DNA from: Spirochaetota bacterium
GTDB taxonomy: Bacteria; Spirochaetota; Spirochaetia; DSM-27196; SLST01
Reading direction: 5' to 3'
Assembly (NCBI GenBank): GCA_048624115.1
Contig: JBMCTC010000002.1
Span: 1-34,201, forward strand
Length of the DNA: 34,201 nt
Below the pieces are notes generated by a model. It saw nothing but the letters and a program-made list of their open reading frames with translations, was not told where the DNA came from and searched no databases. The first letter of the stretch is position 1; each line of letters begins with the position of its first letter. Below are positions 17,174 to 26,475 of the stretch, in pieces. Both the position numbers and the translations under genes were made by a program.

Positions 17174-18052
17174 ATGGACCACCTAACGCTGCTCGAAAAC
17201 AAGAGCGTCTACGTCCTTCGCGAGGCGTATGCGAATTTTCGTGACCTCGCGATGCTCTGGTCAATCGGCAAGGACTCTACCGTCTTGCTCTGGTTGGCCC
17301 GCAAAGCGTTTTTTGGTCACGTGCCCTTCCCTCTCATTCACATCGACACCGGGTACAAGATCCCGGAAATGATCCGTTACCGCGACCGGCTCACCAGCGA
17401 GTGGGGCTTGACCATGATTGTCGGTCAGGACGAGGATTCGCTTCGAACCAAGCAAACGTATCCGGAGGGCAAGAAGACTCGCCTGGAGTGCTGTAAGGCA
17501 CTGAAGAGTCAGACCCTTGAGCGAACCCTCAACGCGACGGGCCCGAGAAAGATCTTTGACCAAGCCAAGAACGGCTACGTGCCGGAGACCAGCGGACAGG
17601 TGTTTTCCGGAGTTATTGCAGGCGTCCGGGCCGACGAAGAGGGTTCTCGGAGCAAGGAGCGTTACTTCTCGCCTCGGACCGGGACAAACGATTGGGAAAT
17701 CGCCGATCAACCGCCGGAGTTCTGGAACCACTATAAGACGGAGTTCGCCCCCGGCACCCATGTTCGGATTCACCCGCTGCTCGACTGGACCGAGCTCAAC
17801 ATCTGGGAGTACATCAACGCCGAGTCAATACCAACCGTCGACCTCTACTACGACCGGGGCAACGGCACCCGCTATCGATCACTTGGCTGCCAGCCCTGCA
17901 CCTTTCCCATAGAGAGCACGGCGAAGAACCCGGCGGACATTATTGCCGAGCTCAAATCGGGCAATCTCAAGAACATCGCCGAACGCAGCGGCCGCGCCCA
18001 GGACGCGGAAGACGGCGGTCTCGAGACCTTGCGCAAATCAGGATACATGTAA
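17174..18052 (+). CDS. cysD: Sulfate adenylyltransferase subunit 2
   Basis: 292 aa. PP-loop motif [17 protein letters not shown], then [11 protein letters not shown], and the conserved C-terminal LRKSGYM. The stop overlaps the cysN ATG (TAATG). Confidence 0.95.
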
Positions 18053-19935
18053 TGAACCCGAGCACCACGACGAAAGGCGGGAACACATCAGCCTATCCTC
18101 GGTTGGCGGCCGACAGAGAGCCCAGTGGCCCCATGAGCGAAGATCGGCCCACCCTGCAACTTGTCGTTGTTGGTCACGTCGATCACGGAAAAAGTACAAT
18201 TGTTGGGCGTATGCTCCACGATACCGGCTCGCTTCCAGAGGGAAAACTCGATGCGGTGCGCGCGCAGTGCGAGCGAAACTCGAAGCCGTTCGAGTACGCC
18301 TTCCTGATTGACGCCCTCAAGGAGGAGCAGTCGCAAGGCATTACGATAGACTCGGCACGCGTCTTCTTCTCTTCCCACCGCCGCGACTACATTCTCATCG
18401 ATGCGCCGGGCCACGTCGAGTTCCTGAAGAACATGGTCACCGGTGCGAGCCGAGCAGATGCCGGATTCCTCGTAATCGACGCCGCCGAGGGCATTCAGGA
18501 GAACAGCCGTCGACACGGATACCTGTTGGCAATGCTTGGCATCAAGCACTTTTCAGTGATTGTCAACAAGATGGACCTGATTGACTATGACCAGCGGATC
18601 TTCCGGCGCATTGTCAGGCGTTACCGCCGCTTTCTGAGGAGCATCTCGGTCCCAGCGGAGAACACGACCTTTATTCCGGTCAGCGGCATCGCCGGTGACA
18701 ATATCGCCGCCCGTAGCCCGCGGACGCCTTGGTACGAGGGAAAAACCGTGCTCGAGCAGCTCGACAGCTTTCCCGGAACGATCCCGAGCGATCAGCTGCC
18801 GGCCCGAATGCCGGTTCAGGGTGTTTACAAGTTTACCGCCTACGGGGACACGCGACGAATCATTGCAGGAAGCATTGCCGGCGGCACATTCTCGGTCGGC
18901 GAGGAGGTGGTCTTCTACCCCTCGGGTAAGCGCAGCCGCATACGAAGCTTCGAAGCGTTCTCAGCCGTGGCGCCGGAGACGATCACCGCACCACATGCCA
19001 CCGGGTTTTGCCTCGAAGATCAGATCTACGTCACGCGTGGCGAACTTGCAACACGCGGTAGCGACCCGCCGCCGACCGTGAGTAGCCGTCTCAAGGCGAA
19101 CATCTTTTGGCTTGGTCGCGAGGAGATGACCGAGGGCGTCGAGTACACCTTCAAGCTCGGAACGATGGCGCACAGCGTTCGCCTTCACCGTGTGATTCGT
19201 GTCTTGAGCGCCTCAAATCTCAAACCGAGCAAACGCAAACGGAGCGTGGAGCGTCACGACGTCGCGGAGGTGGAGCTTCGATTCGACGGCGATATCGCCT
19301 TTGACGAGGCGAATGTGCTACCGGCAACCGGACGCTTTGTCATTGTCAGCAACTACGACATCTGCGGTGGAGGCATTATCCAGGGGTCGGCAACCGACGA
19401 GGATGAGTGGATTCGCGAGAACGTGCGCCTTCGCAACTTTGCATGGCAGCGCAGTCTCATCCAGCCGCCGGAGCGTGCCGAGCGATACGGCCAGAAGAGT
19501 AGATTGATCGTGCTCCACGGTGACAATCCGGCTGAGACGACCTCGCTTGCCCATCAGCTCGAGCAACGGCTCTTCAACGAGGGCAAGCTCGTCTACTGCC
19601 TTGGCGCAGAGAACGTCGAACACGGCGTAAGTGCGGACCTGCAAGAGGTGCCGATGATACGCGAGGAGCACGTTCGACGCTTAGCCGAGGTCGCGCACCT
19701 CTTTTTGGACGCAGGAATCATGCTCATTGTATCGGGCATCAAGCTCACCGCCGCGGACATCGACGTGCTACGCGTGCCGGTAAACCCGGAGTCTATGCTC
19801 ATTGTCCAAGTCGGAGAACGACAAGCAAAGGGAATCGTGAATCACCTCGTGCTCGAAGGGGATTCCCGTGAATCATCGATCGAGAAGATAAAACGGGCTC
19901 TGAGGAAAACCGGAGCGATCTTCAGCCCGTATTGA
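18052..19935 (+). CDS. cysN: Sulfate adenylyltransferase subunit 1 (GTPase) fused to a degenerate APS-kinase-like C-terminal domain
   Basis: 627 aa. GTPase motifs GHVDHGKST, DAPGH and NKMD are followed by EF-Tu-like beta-barrel domains. Residues ~455-627 align by eye to CysC, but the P-loop GLSGSGKS is replaced by GDNPAETT and LDGDNVRHGL by LGAENVEHGV. Confidence 0.9.
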   Translation: MNPSTTTKGGNTSAYPRLAADREPSGPMSEDRPTLQLVVVGHVDHGKSTIVGRMLHDTGSLPEGKLDAVRAQCERNSKPFEYAFLIDALKEEQSQGITIDSARVFFSSHRRDYILIDAPGHVEFLKNMVTGASRADAGFLVIDAAEGIQENSRRHGYLLAMLGIKHFSVIVNKMDLIDYDQRIFRRIVRRYRRFLRSISVPAENTTFIPVSGIAGDNIAARSPRTPWYEGKTVLEQLDSFPGTIPSDQLPARMPVQGVYKFTAYGDTRRIIAGSIAGGTFSVGEEVVFYPSGKRSRIRSFEAFSAVAPETITAPHATGFCLEDQIYVTRGELATRGSDPPPTVSSRLKANIFWLGREEMTEGVEYTFKLGTMAHSVRLHRVIRVLSASNLKPSKRKRSVERHDVAEVELRFDGDIAFDEANVLPATGRFVIVSNYDICGGGIIQGSATDEDEWIRENVRLRNFAWQRSLIQPPERAERYGQKSRLIVLHGDNPAETTSLAHQLEQRLFNEGKLVYCLGAENVEHGVSADLQEVPMIREEHVRRLAEVAHLFLDAGIMLIVSGIKLTAADIDVLRVPVNPESMLIVQVGERQAKGIVNHLVLEGDSRESSIEKIKRALRKTGAIFSPY

Positions 19936-19962: not shown

Positions 19963-21237
19963 ATGCACTACAGTCTGAAGTGTCTGAGCACGGGAGCGGT
20001 GTTGACCGACGAGCTGCTCCCGTTGAGTAATCCTGCGGCGCAGGTTCCCGCGTTTCTGCGGGCAACATACAATAAGAGAGAGTTCAAACCGGGCACTGCC
20101 GACGCCGGCATTTACCGCTTTGCCGATTGGCTCCCGATTCGTCGAACGCTCGAAGGCTCGAGCGCTCCGACAACATACCGGAGCGAGGGGCTCGCCGAGC
20201 GAGTCGGACTCAAGAACCTCTTTATTACGTTTTCCGGCTACTGGCCCGAGCGGAATGCACTGATGCGAACAGGGACGTTCAAGGAGTGCGAGGCGTTTAG
20301 TGTCTGCGGACGAATGCCGGCGAATTACGACAAGACGCTTGTCGTCGCCTCGGCTGGGAACACGGCACGCGCGTTTATCCGGGTGTGCTCGGAGAACAAC
20401 ATACCGCTCCTCGTAGTTGTGCCCGAGCGTAATCTGCCCAACATCTGGAGCGTGGGCCCGGTCGGAGCAAACGTGAGGGTGGTTGCCGCCGGAGGCGATT
20501 CGGACTACTCCGACGCGATTGAGCTCTCGGGCATTTTTGCGTCGCTTCCCGGTTTTGCCGCGGAGGGCGGCGCGAAGAACGTCGCACGTCGGGACGGTAT
20601 GGGCACGACGGTTCTCTCTGCGGTTGAAGAGATCGGCGAGATTCCTCACCACTACTTTCAGGCGGTAGGCAGCGGTACCGGTGCCATTGCTGCATGGGAA
20701 GCCAATCTGAGGCTACTCGAAGCCGGCGACTACGGTGACCGTACGATGAGACTCCACGTGAGCCAAAATCTGCCCTTTACGCCGATTCATCTTGCCTGGA
20801 AGAAGCAATCGCGCGAGATTCCAAGCATGCCCGAGGCAAGCGCCCGTCGATTGATTCGACGCATAAGTGCGAAGGTTTTGGCAAACCGGAACCCGCCGTA
20901 CGCTCTGACCGGTGGGCTCTACGATGCATTGTACGAGACGCATGGTACCACCGCTGCCGTGGGGAACGTTGCAGCCGCCCGCGCCGCGCGAATCTTTCGG
21001 AGACTCGAGGGTGCGGACATCGCACCCGCGGCGGCAGTGGCGGTTGCAGATCTTATGCGTAGGGCCAGAACTGGATTAATAAAGGAAGATGAAATCGTGA
21101 TGCTCAACGTGACCGGCGGCGGCTACAAGGGCATACACAGGAGTGAGGATATTCGCCTCGTCGTTCCGGATGCAGTGGTTCATCGAGAAAACTTCCATCC
21201 GGAGGACGTGGCAAAAATCGCCCGTGAACTCTTTTGA
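19963..21237 (+). CDS. Threonine-synthase-fold PLP enzyme, cysteate synthase-like (candidate O-phosphoserine + sulfite -> L-cysteate)
   Basis: 424 aa. PLP-Lys region MRTGTFKECEAFSV (FKE rather than the FKD of threonine synthases). FSGYWPERNALM lies just upstream, with ASAGNTARAF and a GSGTGAIAAW glycine loop. N-terminus MHYSLKCLSTG..LTD. It is embedded between cysN and an alpha-oxoamine synthase. Confidence 0.65.
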   Translation: MHYSLKCLSTGAVLTDELLPLSNPAAQVPAFLRATYNKREFKPGTADAGIYRFADWLPIRRTLEGSSAPTTYRSEGLAERVGLKNLFITFSGYWPERNALMRTGTFKECEAFSVCGRMPANYDKTLVVASAGNTARAFIRVCSENNIPLLVVVPERNLPNIWSVGPVGANVRVVAAGGDSDYSDAIELSGIFASLPGFAAEGGAKNVARRDGMGTTVLSAVEEIGEIPHHYFQAVGSGTGAIAAWEANLRLLEAGDYGDRTMRLHVSQNLPFTPIHLAWKKQSREIPSMPEASARRLIRRISAKVLANRNPPYALTGGLYDALYETHGTTAAVGNVAAARAARIFRRLEGADIAPAAAVAVADLMRRARTGLIKEDEIVMLNVTGGGYKGIHRSEDIRLVVPDAVVHRENFHPEDVAKIARELF

Positions 21238-21256: not shown

Positions 21257-22549
21257 ATGGATCAGACAGCAGTTGTAACTGAGTCACGCGATCTCTTCGA
21301 GAAGTGCCGCAGCGACGGCGGCTACTTTGGTCTCATGAGAGCCCAAGACGATCACTACTTCACCCGACCGATTCTCCCACCAAAACCGGGCCGTCGAATG
21401 GAGTTCGACGGAATGCAGACGGTAATGTGGAGCGTGAATAACTACCTCGGGCTTGCAGGACACCCCGAGGTGCAGAAATCGGCACTCGAGGCGGTGCAAG
21501 AGTTTGGGGTAAGCTCGCCGATGGGTTCGAGGATGATGACGGGAAACACGCCCTATCACCTCGAGTTCGAAGACGCGCTTGCCTCGTTCACCCAGAAAGA
21601 GGCCGCGTTTCTCTTTAACTACGGCTACCTCGGCGTGTTGGGCACGATCCAGTCTCTCGTGGGGCCGGACGATGTCATCGTGATGGACAAGCTCGCCCAC
21701 GCATGTATCGTGGACGGGGCGTTCCTCTCTCGCGGTCAGCTTCGCGTATTCAAGCACAACAACGCCGATAGCCTCGAAACCGTCCTGAAAGCGGTCAACC
21801 GCAAGCGCAAGGGTGGCGTATTGATCCTTACCGAGGGCGTCTACGGCATGACCGGCGACCTCGCCATCCTCCCCGATGTGGCACGACTGGCACGCCAGTA
21901 CGATGCGCGCGTCTTTGTGGATGACGCGCACGGTTGGGGCGTAATGGGCGAACAGGGCCGCGGTACCGCCGACCACCTCGGAGTCCAGGACGATATCGAC
22001 GTCTACTTTGGCACCTTCGCCAAGTCGTTCGCCTCGATCGGCGGCTTCTCGGCATCGAAGCGAGAGGTAATCGATTGGATCGCCTATAACGCCCGGACAC
22101 AGGTCTTTGCAAAGAGTCTTCCAATGGTGTACGTCCAGAGCTTGCGCACGACGCTCGACCTCGTTCGGAACGCAGACGCCAACCGCGAGAAAATGTGGGC
22201 AAACAGCAACCTGCTCAAGGAGGGGCTTCGAGAGCTCGGCTTCTTTGTCGGTCCGGGCGAATCACCAATCTGTTCGGTCTTTGTGCCCGTCCGCGAAGAG
22301 ACCGTGGAAGCGGTTGGCGTTCGCACCGTCGGCTACCTGCGCAAGAACGGTATCTTCGTGACGGCAATCACCTACCCTGTCATTCCGTTGGGCCTGCTGA
22401 TGTATCGAATGATTCCAACCGCCGACCACGAGCCGGAGGACGTCGCACAGACGATCGAGGTCTTCAGAAAAATGCGAGACGAGGTGAACCTCGACACGTC
22501 GATCACGGGAGAGGACAAGGTCAAAGTCGATAAGGTTTTTGGGGCATAG
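21257..22549 (+). CDS. Alpha-oxoamine synthase family PLP enzyme (candidate cysteate-C-acyltransferase; BioF/SPT-like)
   Basis: 430 aa from the ATG at 21257, which has AAGGAG 8 nt upstream. The ORF-track start at 21143 overlaps the preceding gene. AOS motifs: VNNYLGLAGHPEV, GYLGVLGTIQSLV, DDAHGWG, and the PLP-Lys block GTFAKSFASIGG. Confidence 0.85.
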   Translation: MDQTAVVTESRDLFEKCRSDGGYFGLMRAQDDHYFTRPILPPKPGRRMEFDGMQTVMWSVNNYLGLAGHPEVQKSALEAVQEFGVSSPMGSRMMTGNTPYHLEFEDALASFTQKEAAFLFNYGYLGVLGTIQSLVGPDDVIVMDKLAHACIVDGAFLSRGQLRVFKHNNADSLETVLKAVNRKRKGGVLILTEGVYGMTGDLAILPDVARLARQYDARVFVDDAHGWGVMGEQGRGTADHLGVQDDIDVYFGTFAKSFASIGGFSASKREVIDWIAYNARTQVFAKSLPMVYVQSLRTTLDLVRNADANREKMWANSNLLKEGLRELGFFVGPGESPICSVFVPVREETVEAVGVRTVGYLRKNGIFVTAITYPVIPLGLLMYRMIPTADHEPEDVAQTIEVFRKMRDEVNLDTSITGEDKVKVDKVFGA

Positions 22550-23315
22550 CGTGCAGCGAGAGCCGCGCAAACGAAGCGACCTCGCCCGCCTCGATCAAGC
22601 GAGCGAGGGACTCGATACCGGCGATCTCCTCGCGTTCCTCTGCGATCGAATCGCGCCGGGAACCGTGAAGCTCGCCTCGAGCCTCGGCGCCGAGGATCAG
22701 GTTCTCACCCACATAATTGCGGAGCGAGCCTTGCCGATTACGGTGCTTACCCTCGACACGGGGAGGCTCTTTCCAGAGAGCTACGATCTCATGGCACGAA
22801 CGCGTGCGATGGGTGTTTCATTCGAGGTTGTCTTTCCCGACGGCCCTGCCGTCGAGGAGATGGTGCGCGCGCACGGCGTGAATCTCTTCCGGGACAGCGT
22901 CGAGTTACGCAAGCGTTGCTGTGGTATCCGAAAGGTGGATCCACTCAACAGAGCGCTCGCCGGGTGTAGTGCATGGGTCACCGGAATGAGACGCGAGCAA
23001 GCGGTTACGCGAGGTGAGATTTCGCGACTCGAATGGGATGCCGACCGGGAAATGCTCAAGGTGAATCCGCTCGCCGACTGGTCGGAGGATGAGGTATGGC
23101 AGTACGTGCGGGAGCACGACGTGCCCTATCATCCTCTTCACGACGAGGGATTTCCCTCAATTGGCTGCGCGCCGTGCACCCGAGCAGTCAAGCCGGGCGA
23201 GGATCCGCGTGCGGGTCGTTGGTGGTGGGAATCACCGGAGCACAAGGAGTGCGGTCTCCACGTGCGTGCAGCGACTGCGCAATCGTACGTGAACGTGAAA
23301 CACCTCGACTCGTAG
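22539..23315 (+). CDS. cysH: Assimilatory adenylyl-sulfate (APS) reductase, Fe-S cluster type (CysH family)
   Basis: CysH fold with C-terminal KECGLH. It also has the two Cys pairs typical of APS-specific enzymes (RKRCCGIRKV and SIGCAPCT). The start is TTG 22539 (11-nt overlap) or GTG 22551 (1 nt after the upstream stop). Confidence 0.9.
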   Translation: MGHSVQREPRKRSDLARLDQASEGLDTGDLLAFLCDRIAPGTVKLASSLGAEDQVLTHIIAERALPITVLTLDTGRLFPESYDLMARTRAMGVSFEVVFPDGPAVEEMVRAHGVNLFRDSVELRKRCCGIRKVDPLNRALAGCSAWVTGMRREQAVTRGEISRLEWDADREMLKVNPLADWSEDEVWQYVREHDVPYHPLHDEGFPSIGCAPCTRAVKPGEDPRAGRWWWESPEHKECGLHVRAATAQSYVNVKHLDS

Positions 23316-23326
23316 CAAAGCCGGGG

Positions 23327-23353
23327 GGGCGAGTCCTACCTTCGAACTCGCCC
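23327..23353. terminator. GC-rich hairpin between convergent operons (possible bidirectional terminator)
   Basis: GGGCGAGT (23327-23334) pairs perfectly with ACTCGCCC (23346-23353), with an 11-nt loop. It lies between the cysH stop (23315) and the VOC-gene stop (23336-23338), overlapping the latter. No U-tract on either side. Confidence 0.35.
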
Positions 23354-24391
23354 GAGACCGAGGAGTTTGATCATCCATCGAGGTAACGACTTCTTCGGAT
23401 CACGCTTGGTAAGGTCCAAACTCAGGCCGAGCGACTTCATAAGCGGCACCTTGTGAGTCTCTACGAACTCGATCAGCGTACCGTCGTGGTCCTCTATGTA
23501 GCTAAAGCGACCACCGGCGCTTCCCATGTCAAAGGTGTTTGCGCTATCAACGGTAAAAGCCCGCCCCATCGAGGCGCACGCCGCTGCGAGCGCGTCCATA
23601 CCCTGAACATCAAAACAGAGGTGAATAAAGCCGAGATCGCCCCAATAGCGATCGGCGAAGATCTTCTTGCCCTTCCCGCTGGTGAGTTGCACTAATTCGA
23701 TTGTGCTGGTTCCCATGAGCTCTGCAAAAGGACCTCGGCGTGGCTGCGAATGCGTGAGGAGGACGCGGCGGAACTCCGCTCCCCCCTTTGGCAAGTCGGC
23801 AAAATCGGCGTGCGAGCCGGTCACATCGTAGACCACCGCGTCATACCCGAGAATCTTCTGATAGAGCGGCAACGCGGCGTCGATGTCCGAGCTGCCGATG
23901 ATCGCACCTGCGACGCCTCCCACGGCGGCAGGTTTTCCAAACCAATCGGCGGCTTCCATAATGCAAAAGAGATTACCCTGCGGGTCGAGGGCAAAGATAC
24001 GCTCATCCCCGTCAGGGGCTTCGGTGGGCGGAACGAGAATGGCCGCCCCCGCCTCGGTCAGCTTCGCATGAGCGAGGCGGATATCGCTTGTCTTGAGCAC
24101 GCCGGCAAAGATCCCGGTATCGCCGAGAACCGGTGGCTCTTTCGGGGCCACCGGCGTCCGGCTGGTGAACTGCCAGATCTCAAAGCCCGAGCCTCCGCTC
24201 AAGTTGAGCGCGAGGACAGCGTTCCGTTTATGGACTGCACTGCCGGTGTAGCGTGTCATAAGCGGCGCCTCCGCCTCGTCTTGAAAAACCGGGACGTCGA
24301 GTCCAAATGCGATCCGGTACCACGCCCAAGCCGAAGAGACGTCGCGAACGCCGACGCCGAGCTGCTGAATGCCGCTGATCGTGTAGTCCAT
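23336..24391 (-). CDS. VOC (glyoxalase/bleomycin-resistance/dioxygenase) superfamily protein, multi-domain
   Basis: 351 aa. Repeated beta-alpha-beta-beta-beta VOC-like modules start at ISGIQQLGVGVRDVSSAWAWY, at GAIIGSSDIDAALPLYQKILGY, and at the GFIHLCFDVQGMDAL region. The ATG lies 4 nt after the stop of the upstream DUF1295-like gene. Confidence 0.75.
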   Translation of the reverse strand: MDYTISGIQQLGVGVRDVSSAWAWYRIAFGLDVPVFQDEAEAPLMTRYTGSAVHKRNAVLALNLSGGSGFEIWQFTSRTPVAPKEPPVLGDTGIFAGVLKTSDIRLAHAKLTEAGAAILVPPTEAPDGDERIFALDPQGNLFCIMEAADWFGKPAAVGGVAGAIIGSSDIDAALPLYQKILGYDAVVYDVTGSHADFADLPKGGAEFRRVLLTHSQPRRGPFAELMGTSTIELVQLTSGKGKKIFADRYWGDLGFIHLCFDVQGMDALAAACASMGRAFTVDSANTFDMGSAGGRFSYIEDHDGTLIEFVETHKVPLMKSLGLSLDLTKRDPKKSLPRWMIKLLGLGRVRR

Positions 24392-24395
24392 ACGG

Positions 24396-25295
24396 TTAGT
24401 ATACTGAAGCGTCGCCGTTACGTTCGGCCTCGGCGGCGTCGATTTCTCTACTCGCGAGACGGCGGTTCATCATGGGGATCGAGATACCCAGGAACATCGC
24501 CGTCATCGCCACAGGTCCGACGAGGGTCCAGAGTTCCACGCCGGCCGCGTACGAGAGCGCCCAAACGCCCCACCAAAAGAGCATCTCGCCAATGTAGTTT
24601 GGATGGCGAACAACGCCCCAGATTCCAGTTCGCAAGATCTTGCCCCCGGTTGAGGGGTCACTTCGAAACGCGGCGAGCTGATTGTCGGCCACCCATTCGA
24701 GACCAATCGCAGCTGTGAGCAGCAGCCCGCCTGCGACGAGCGTAAGCATCGAAAACGGGTCGGCCATTGATGCGGTTCTCTGAAGTGCAAAGGCAACCGG
24801 CACGAGCCCAACGAAGACGATAAGCGTCGGGAAAAAGTGAACTCCGATAAAGTCGATCACGATTTCCGCGCGGCCAAACTGCCCTTTGAGCATGCCGTAT
24901 CGCCAATCCTCGTCGCCGAATCCGTGCCAACGCCGTACCCAGTTCGCCGTCAGACGCACGCTCCACACGACGAAGGCGAGAAGCAGCAACGAGAGCCAGA
25001 GCACGGCACCCGTCGAGCTTCCCTCGAACGCCGCGCCGATTCCGCCTCGGTAGGCTGCAATCCAAAAGAGCACGATCACAGGCGGCGCGAGACTCCAGTA
25101 CGGATCGTACATGCTCGAGTTGCCGGACAGCCGACTCGCAACAAATACAAAGAGCGTGGCCGCCGCGTCTGCCCAGAGCGCGCGCTCGACGGGTGAGCGG
25201 TCACGCAGCCAGAGAACGACTGCCGCGCCGACAACGAATGCGGCCACGTAGGTAAAGAACACCGCGACGAGCGCTCGCCTCTTCTCACGCACCAT
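24396..25295 (-). CDS. DUF1295 / steroid-5-alpha-reductase-like polytopic membrane protein
   Basis: About 299 aa with 6-8 TM segments. The C-terminal signature [24 protein letters not shown] is shared by DUF1295, ICMT-like and sterol/polyprenol reductase families. ATG at 25295 overlaps the kbl 3' end by 11 nt; the track start at 25313 overlaps by 29 nt. Confidence 0.75.
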
Positions 25296-26475
25296 GGCCG
25301 AGCTCCTTCGCAACCGCAGTAAGCTGTTCGAGCGTATAGTCGAGCTCTTCGCGCGTGTGCGCAGCGCTCACCTGCATTCGTATACGCGCGCTACCCTTCG
25401 GGACCACGGGATACGAGAAGCCGATCACATACACGCCGCGCGCGAGCAGGAGGTCGGCCATCTCGTGGGCCAGCTTTGCCTCACCAAGCATAATCGGCAC
25501 GATCGGATGGGAGCCCCCGGGAATCGACAGGCCGATCTTTGCGACTTCGTTGCGGAAGTAGCGAGTGTTCTCTTCGAGCCGATCGCGAAGCTCGCTGCTT
25601 GATTCGAGAAGGTCGAGCACGGCTATCGACGCGGCCACAATGCTCGGCGCGACGCTGTTGCTAAAAAGGTAGGGGCGCGACCGCTGTCGCAGCAGATCCA
25701 CGACCTCTGCGTTCGCGGCGGTGTAGCCGCCGGTGGCTCCGCCGAGCGCCTTACCAAGGGTCCCGGTAATGATGTCGACGCGGTCGACCACATCGTGATA
25801 CTCGTGGGTCCCCCTACCCTTTGCCCCGAGAAAGCCCACCGCGTGGCAGTCGTCAAACATGACAAGTGCCCCGTGTTTCTCGGCGAGATCACAGATACCG
25901 GGAAGGTTTGCAATGGTTCCGTCCATCGAGAAAACCCCATCCGTCGCGATGAGCTTCACATCGGCTTCGGAAGCCTCTTCGAGCCGCTGCTCCAAATCGG
26001 CCATATCGCAGTTCTTGAAGACGTAGCGCTTGGCCTTGCAGAGGCGCACACCGTCGATGATGCTCGCGTGGTTCAAGCTGTCGCTGATGATCGCGTCTTC
26101 AGGGCCCAACAGCGTCTCAAAGAGACCACCGTTTGCGTCGAAACAGGAGGCATAAAGAATCGCGTCTTCCGTTCCCAAGAACGAGGCGAGACGCCTCTCG
26201 AGCTCCTTATGGATCTCTTGGGTCCCACAGATAAATCGAACGGACGAGAGGCCAAAACCCCATTCGTCGAGGCTCTTGCGCGCCGCCTCGATGACGCTCG
26301 GATGGTTGGAGAGGCCGAGGTAGTTGTTCGCGCAGAAGTTGATGACGTTCTTCCCGTCTGCCACACCGATCGTCGAATCCTGCGGCGTCTCGATGATTCG
26401 CTCGGTCTTATAGAGCCCCGCCTCTCGTATCTCCTGTAAGATAGATGAGAAACGCGCGCGTGCGTGAGTGTCCAT
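25285..26475 (-). CDS. kbl: Glycine C-acetyltransferase (2-amino-3-ketobutyrate CoA ligase)
   Basis: 396 aa, collinear and highly similar by eye to E. coli Kbl along its whole length. Shared blocks: [96 protein letters not shown] and [10 protein letters not shown]. Confidence 0.95.

Follow-up and report, generated by a model that had tools for sequence, protein, structure and literature searches.

Does a gene with the fold of threonine synthase (ThrC) that lies among sulfur genes in a spirochaete make threonine or a sulfonate, and, in the second case, what would the sulfonate be used for? The locus raising this question lies in a stretch of 34,201 nt (hereafter the window; positions 1 to 34,201 of contig JBMCTC010000002.1, assembly GCA_048624115.1), which belongs to the metagenome-assembled genome (MAG), 88% complete, of an uncultured Spirochaetota bacterium. 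The gene is an open reading frame (ORF) of 424 aa at 19963..21237 on the forward strand, which a sequence-only reading, made without database searches, had put forward as a candidate cysteate synthase (CS). Profile scores and the predicted structure support this identity. Taking the whole locus into account, we consider it probable that a pyridoxal phosphate (PLP)-dependent, ThrC-derived CS stands in the middle of a pathway from sulfate to 3-ketocapnine that is encoded by an operon of five genes. The host had been taken for a spirochaete, and the closest named relatives are indeed MAGs labelled Spirochaetota, Spirochaetaceae or Spirochaetales. A search of sequencing runs located the DNA in microbial-mat metagenomes of two studies, and returned no RNA run with a match to the sequence.

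Identity of the enzyme

The ORF starts with ATG, carries a ribosome-binding site (GAGGGGG) 6 nt 5' of the start codon and was called with an identical protein in four independent assemblies. With TIGR03844, the NCBIfam equivalog model for cysteate synthase, its product scored 457.6 bits (cut-off 324.9) in a match that spans positions 1-394 of the 398 in the model, whereas the top threonine synthase model, NF006050, gave only 68.8 bits (cut-off 303), TIGR00260 (thrC) gave 23.2 bits (cut-off 167.1), and all ThrC models remained between 23 and 69 bits against cut-offs of 167-421. The specificity of TIGR03844 was apparent among 14 control genomes, where its cut-off was passed only in Methanosarcina acetivorans. 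Comparison with solved structures gave the same picture: PDB entry 9k3c ('Cysteate synthase') matched with 438.8 bits in a gapless alignment over 417 residues, and threonine synthase entries with 42 bits at most. An AlphaFold2 model built from a 30-sequence family alignment (predicted local distance difference test, pLDDT, 96.3; predicted template-modelling score, pTM, 0.94) was placed by Foldseek on 9k3c, the PLP complex of Alistipes finegoldii CapA2, with a template-modelling (TM) score of 0.97, a root-mean-square deviation of 1.1 Å and 49% identity; threonine synthases were the next best matches, with TM around 0.6 and 18-23% identity. Both checks suggested together with the original proposal, a comparison of profile scores and a structure prediction, therefore point to CS. 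Since the genome also has a bona fide thrC of its own on another contig (C3; 283.7 bits with TIGR00260), these scores and the structural match exclude a threonine synthase within the limits of what sequence can tell, and support the prediction that the gene encodes a genuine cysteate synthase.

The signature block of the protein (residues 90-114, FSGYWPE...TFKECEAFSV; 20230..20304, forward strand) consists in the translation of FSGYWPERNALM (residues 90-101) and RTGTFKECEAFSV (residues 102-114), and both peptides had been quoted exactly in the sequence-only reading. Lysine K107 (nt 20281-20283) corresponds in the alignment to K61, to which PLP is bound in Thermus thermophilus ThrC (1uim/1v7c), the segment S130-A131-G132-N133-T134 to the substrate loop S84-T85-G86-N87-T88 of that enzyme, and R209 to its R160. 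The latter arginine is a phosphate ligand in ThrC, and the correspondence fits a phospho-amino-acid substrate. Along with PLP fold-type II and this kind of substrate, CS thus shares with ThrC the PLP lysine, the S-x-G-N-T loop and the equivalent of R160, but is extended at the N-terminus by a domain of some 75 residues that ThrC lacks. There are two further differences. The PLP-phosphate loop, GNAGN in T. thermophilus ThrC, is GSGTG in CS, and D62-R63-G64, which follow the lysine in the Thermus enzyme, are replaced by E108-C109-E110 and then A111. The motif around the lysine consequently reads T-F-K-E-C-E-A in CS, compared with A-F-K-D-F-G in the genome's own ThrC and S-F-K-D-R-G in that of T. 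thermophilus; the S-F-K-D-R/F-G motif of ThrC is not present at the PLP lysine of CS. The predicted reaction would be the conversion of O-phospho-L-serine and sulfite to L-cysteate and phosphate.

The sequence-only reading had treated FKE, as opposed to FKD, as the mark of cysteate synthases. This rule holds within the Bacteroidales/Spirochaetota part of the family tree, where glutamate occupied position 108, immediately after the PLP lysine, in all 69 rows from named or related genomes. It fails family-wide, however: over 101 family rows the position is occupied by E in 62 rows and by D in 28, and FKD appears in 26 deeper representatives, among them named cysteate synthases from Methanomassiliicoccus and a gammaproteobacterium. 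We have rejected FKE as a family discriminator on account of these 26 sequences. The near-invariant hallmark of the family, as judged from its alignments, is instead FK-x-x-E-A (F106 conserved in 97, K107 in 96, E110 in 93 and A111 in 91 of the 101 rows), with E110-A111 in the place of R/F-G of ThrC. In the 30-sequence alignment F106, K107, E110, A111, G132, N133, T134, N206, R210 and the loop G236...G240 were invariant. The GYWPE block, which had also been cited as characteristic, is the family consensus (G in 97, Y in 72, W in 66, P in 90 and E in 63 of the 101 rows) but not a strict feature, CapA2 of A. finegoldii having GYYPA. Annotation should therefore rely on the TIGR03844 score or on FK-x-x-E-A, the distinction between FKE and FKD being unreliable.

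Two observations on the family alignment can be added. The representative of a Methanosarcinaceae cluster (P0175), although named cysteate synthase, shows T-F-E-E-L-S-A, with a glutamate at the position of the PLP lysine, which could be a misalignment or denote a non-catalytic paralogue. The N-terminal domain shows in the family consensus the cysteine pattern C-x-x-C-G ... C-P, of which only the first cysteine (C7) is kept in residues 1-30 of our protein (19963-20050), and A. finegoldii CapA2 is alike; on this basis a metal site in the N-terminal domain, if there is any in the family, has probably been lost in the clade that contains both enzymes.

The acyltransferase partner and the operon

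The gene that follows CS (21257..22549, forward strand) encodes an alpha-oxoamine synthase of 430 aa resembling CapB and SulA. It gave 362.5 bits with PDB 28eh (CapB of Capnocytophaga ochracea) and 358.9 bits with 7u7h (SulA of A. finegoldii). Among paralogous families, the best serine palmitoyltransferase (SPT) reached 256.6 bits and Kbl 204 bits, CapB/SulA leading SPT, Kbl and BioF by around 100 bits or more. Eighteen residues line or shape the PLP-cysteate pocket of the cysteate fatty-acyltransferase (CFAT) of C. ochracea, COCFAT (PMC13692747), and 15 of them are identical in the spirochaete protein, including N52, G114, Y115, H139, C141, H219, T247, K250 and K280. Judged from these scores and residues, the gene is a CFAT orthologue.

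CS and CFAT are the third and fourth of five co-directional genes, arranged in the order cysD', cysN', CS, CFAT and cysH. The gaps between them are short: 27 nt separate cysN' from CS, 19 nt the stop codon of CS from CFAT, and 1 nt CFAT from cysH. The sequence-only reading had stated that the enzyme is flanked by sulfite-producing genes instead of thrA, thrB or hom, and this was borne out, since CysD-like and CysN-like proteins and an adenosine 5'-phosphosulfate (APS) reductase are encoded around it and no hom, thrA or thrB is found nearby.

Predicted sulfate activation and reduction within the operon

The first operon gene (17174..18052, forward strand) encodes CysD', a divergent small subunit of sulfate adenylyltransferase, which passes NF003587 with 330.2 bits (cut-off 195) but reaches just 222 bits with TIGR02039 (cut-off 396.6). 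The second gene (18052..19935, forward strand) encodes CysN', in which the GTPase subunit of sulfate adenylyltransferase is joined to a degenerate APS-kinase-like domain (residues ~455-627). CysN' scored 308.8 bits with TIGR02034 (cut-off 336.1), 422 with NF004035 (cut-off 715) and 45.4 with apsK (cut-off 138.7), and the P-loop of its APS-kinase-like domain is replaced by HGDNPAETTS. The last gene of the operon (22551..23315, forward strand; 254 aa according to the gene callers) codes for CysH, an APS reductase of the Fe-S, thioredoxin-dependent type (TIGR02055, 254.2 bits; cut-off 235.3), with the iron-sulfur cysteines as CC at 123-124 and CxxC at 206-209, together with ECGLH.

A second, canonical set for sulfate activation is located beside metK on contig C159 (L133:1720-6411) and includes cysQ, a pfkB-family kinase gene, cysD and a bifunctional cysNC. 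The CysD of this set scored 415.8 bits with TIGR02039 (cut-off 396.6) and its CysNC 911 with NF004035 (cut-off 715) and 240 with apsK (cut-off 138.7), the APS kinase being intact. Given that CysD' and CysN' fall below the respective cut-offs and that the canonical set is encoded elsewhere, the operon pair consists of divergent, specialised paralogues. The existence of a separate cysD-cysNC-cysQ set makes the operon look like a dedicated branch from sulfate to sulfonate, in which sulfate would be converted through APS and sulfite to cysteate without passing by 3'-phosphoadenosine 5'-phosphosulfate (PAPS), beside a PAPS branch that would serve other purposes. A siroheme sulfite/nitrite reductase domain (NIR_SIR) was found neither in the source genome nor elsewhere in the genus, for which 12 genomes were examined (completeness 90% or more in 8), and a search for a molybdenum sulfite oxidase also found none. 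The genome encodes SerC (483.8 bits), the source of O-phosphoserine, and a CysK-like protein whose 323.9 bits lie just under the cut-off of 350.95.

Natural fusions in the family support the substrates assigned to CS. In P0196 (670 aa, archaeal; from Thermoplasmatota/Euryarchaeota MAGs) CS is fused to a PAPS/APS-reductase domain, and in P0151 (756 aa) to a SerA-type D-2-hydroxyacid dehydrogenase. N-terminal extensions of CS that have no Pfam match occur in P0122 (740 aa) and in P0144 (577 aa, Methanospirillum).

From the family membership, fold and order of these genes we infer the following activities and flow of sulfite. CysD'N' would turn sulfate into APS, and the dead kinase domain would keep APS from being converted to PAPS; CysH would then reduce APS to sulfite, which CS would couple with phosphoserine provided by SerC. 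The chemistry of this family was reportedly established with the M. acetivorans enzyme by Graham and colleagues in 2009. Following it, O-phospho-L-serine in the spirochaete enzyme would form an external aldimine on K107, elimination of phosphate would yield an aminoacrylate, and the addition of sulfite would give L-cysteate. CFAT would finally join cysteate with acyl carrier protein (ACP)- or coenzyme A (CoA)-bound acyl groups to form 3-ketocapnine. This is the first committed intermediate on the way to capnine-type sulfonolipids, which are the lipids that we expect as the final product.

Distribution and phylogeny

The sequence-only reading regarded a cysteate synthase in a spirochaete as unusual. 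At the level of the phylum, the TIGR03844 cut-off was exceeded in 24 of 401 genomes of an even sample of Spirochaetota, in none of those from its three largest families (0/50, 0/75 and 0/38) but in every one from a family that belongs to another class (17/17). Among relatives the enzyme is not rare: it occurs in 26 of 41 genomes of the source order. In the spirochaete MAGs that are its closest named relatives, the gene already bears the label cysteate synthase, given by the NCBI and JGI pipelines.

CFAT directly follows CS in 17 of 20 loci of the order, and one further locus ends at a contig edge. Among 80 loci from named genomes, the CS-CFAT pair was present in all 11 Spirochaetota loci with enough contig and in one Fidelibacterota locus, while in Bacteroidota no CFAT was found within 6 kb on either side of CS (0/62 loci); the named loci and those of the relatives come partly from the same genomes, and hence their counts overlap. 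The complete five-gene operon recurs outside the order, in families f65 and f66. Families f27 and f40 have CS alone, yet the five genomes tested all have a CFAT orthologue elsewhere (50-55% identity, compared with at most 35% for paralogues). Within the order, where the CFAT orthologues show at least 53% identity, 26 of the 41 genomes contained both CS and CFAT, three contained only CS or a fragment of it, none contained CFAT only and 12 contained neither; as related genomes are not independent, we give this as a pattern and not as a statistic. In one genome (G034, locus L035) CFAT lies on a different contig from CS. The flanking sulfur genes are more variable: most of the source family has cysD'N' and cysH, but one genome from the source genus (L032) lacks them.

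Phylogenies obtained with FastTree and IQ-TREE distributed the Spirochaetota CS over several deep branches, and both placed the CapA2-type CS of Bacteroidales as one supported subclade nested among operon-bearing Spirochaetota branches. An approximately unbiased (AU) test did not reject monophyly of the 31 Spirochaetota rows against Bacteroidales (p = 0.48), and we thus conclude no direction of transfer. Three sequences inside the Spirochaetota/Bacteroidales clade come from contigs binned as Oscillospiraceae, Thiohalospira and Lentisphaerae (L047, L062 and L070), which could reflect horizontal transfer or misbinning of short contigs.

Comparison with known pathways

CapA of C. ochracea is reportedly an enzyme of the capnine pathway, as described by Liu and colleagues in 2022. 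It catalyses the reaction predicted for CS and has the same role, since it provides cysteate for CapB, but the type of enzyme is different. A 2023 review describes Capnocytophaga CapA as a different, distantly related enzyme, whereas Alistipes and Odoribacter are stated to rely on a homologue of the cysteate synthase of archaea (PMC10191378). The sequence-only reading had placed CapA of Bacteroidota with the ThrC-derived enzymes, which in the light of this description is imprecise; the spirochaete protein is of the ThrC-derived, archaeal/CapA2 type. A. finegoldii, a proven sulfonolipid producer (PMC10191378), has in CapA2 (PDB 9k3c/9k3o) an enzyme of the same family and fold with the same FKE-x-EA lysine motif. 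It differs in its Bacteroidota host, in the GYYPA block and in the surroundings of the gene, CFAT being not adjacent in Bacteroidota, whereas the spirochaete CS stands beside CFAT with its own supply of sulfite. The CS of Methanosarcinales (M. acetivorans type), founding members of TIGR03844, belong to the same equivalog family with the same predicted reaction and are likewise ThrC-derived, but they are only distant relatives within it, occupy deep archaeal branches of the tree and serve sulfopyruvate and coenzyme M (CoM) there, while the partner in the spirochaete is an acyltransferase.

Of the Bacteroidota sulfonolipid pathway, which comprises Cys/CapA, CFAT/CapB/SulA, KCR/CapC and an N-acyltransferase, the first two enzymes have clear orthologues here. 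In the spirochaete version the genes form an operon and are joined to a module from sulfate through APS to sulfite with a kinase-dead CysN', whereas in Bacteroidota they are scattered. The association of CS and CFAT in one operon with its own sulfite supply makes the genomic evidence for the function of a ThrC-derived CS stronger than in Bacteroidota. According to the review mentioned above, sulfonolipid synthesis is limited to Bacteroidota (PMC10191378); two surveys report homologues in many phyla, at very permissive thresholds. Our literature search found no paper tying spirochaetes to cysteate synthase, cysteate lipids or sulfonolipids.

Alternative explanations

Several points weigh against a pathway to sulfonolipids. 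Three of the 18 pocket residues of CFAT differ (A82S, F113Y and M277V), and replacement of F113 by alanine drops COCFAT activity below 10% (PMC13692747), though tyrosine is a conservative change. The 3-ketocapnine reductase and the N-acyltransferase were not identified. The window annotation contains no short-chain dehydrogenase/reductase (SDR) or acyltransferase gene, and the rest of it is housekeeping only (der, ptsI, an FtsJ-like methyltransferase gene, ymdB, rny, rpsB, tsf, frr, uppS and cdsA). The search for a sulfite reductase was carried out on draft genomes, where non-detection is no proof of absence. Finally, CS occurs without a detectable CFAT orthologue in G036 (L020), in G029, where CS is split, and in G013, where it is a fragment in an incomplete genome. 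Two of these three genomes, including the one with the split CS, are of family f8. Such genomes suggest that some lineages, perhaps family f8 among them, may put cysteate to another use.

A genuine CS whose cysteate is destined for CoM, for taurine or another sulfonate osmolyte, or for a non-lipid natural product is accordingly the alternative to be taken most seriously, albeit an improbable one. The founding members of the family are established to act in CoM synthesis, M. acetivorans passes TIGR03844, sulfonate osmolytes are plausible in a microbial-mat habitat, and three related genomes have CS with no CFAT orthologue; but in this operon the very next gene is that orthologue, adjacency or co-occurrence of the two is nearly universal in the phylum, and a search of the genome, which is 88% complete, found no ComD (sulfopyruvate decarboxylase, TIGR03845). 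It appears very unlikely that the protein is a family member using another nucleophile or substrate, so that O-phosphoserine would react with sulfide to give cysteine, or with thiosulfate, and the product would not be cysteate. The operon encodes a supply of sulfite rather than of sulfide, together with a consumer of cysteate; the equivalog score is well over its cut-off, fusions of CS with APS/PAPS-reductase domains exist, and the protein is almost superimposable on the crystallised enzyme of a proven sulfonolipid producer, to which it is 49% identical. These data outweigh the frequent promiscuity of PLP fold-type II beta-replacement enzymes and the fact that cysteine synthesis in this organism is not fully explained, with no siroheme sulfite reductase found and the CysK-like gene under its cut-off. 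As for a second threonine synthase standing by chance beside sulfur genes, we give it hardly any credence, since the fold and the PLP-lysine context common to both families go together with identities and TM scores as low as those given above, every ThrC model falls far under its cut-off, E-C-E-A replaces D-R/F-G after the lysine, and a bona fide thrC lies on contig C3 with no hom, thrA or thrB near the locus. A cysteate synthase feeding CFAT with cysteate made from sulfate remains the reading that we prefer.

Neighbouring genes

Downstream of the operon, on the reverse strand, lies the gene for a tandem VOC (glyoxalase-fold) protein of 351 aa (23336..24391), recognised by its Pfam Glyoxalase domains; no informative PDB or NCBIfam match was found for it. 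This gene adjoins the CS-CFAT pair in 16 of 20 loci of the relatives, even where the order is rearranged, as in family f5, in which it stands on the CS side. In family f49 (L126) it is co-directional and begins 46 nt after CFAT. Nothing in the Bacteroidota pathway as described corresponds to such a conserved VOC-fold neighbour, and the protein may be an undescribed enzyme of the spirochaete one. Since RNase Y is also conserved nearby, the adjacency may instead be only conserved synteny. Next to it, at 24396-26475 on the reverse strand, lies a bona fide kbl (TIGR01822, 650.8 bits). It overlaps the gene for a DUF1295 membrane protein and is itself followed by the VOC gene, and the three form a convergent operon. 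The adjacency of Kbl and VOC is recurrent within the family, and there is no tdh in the window.

Biological implications

The enzyme family itself is known and recognised by annotation pipelines; what is of interest is its operon context, in a phylum not known for sulfonolipids. We consider it somewhat likely that free-living, mat-dwelling Spirochaetota make capnine-type sulfonolipids from sulfate by means of a self-contained operon, with the VOC-fold neighbour as a possible enzyme of the pathway. The operon also suggests where the sulfite for cysteate would come from, namely a paralogous, APS-only branch of sulfate activation in an organism for which the search for a sulfite reductase found none. 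Should this be true, the APS reductase would serve the biosynthesis of a sulfonate and not the assimilation of sulfide. Sulfonolipids, membrane lipids which play roles in gliding motility, in host immune signalling through TLR4 and in the induction of multicellularity in choanoflagellates, would then be no hallmark of Bacteroidota but an ancient feature of several spirochaete lineages.

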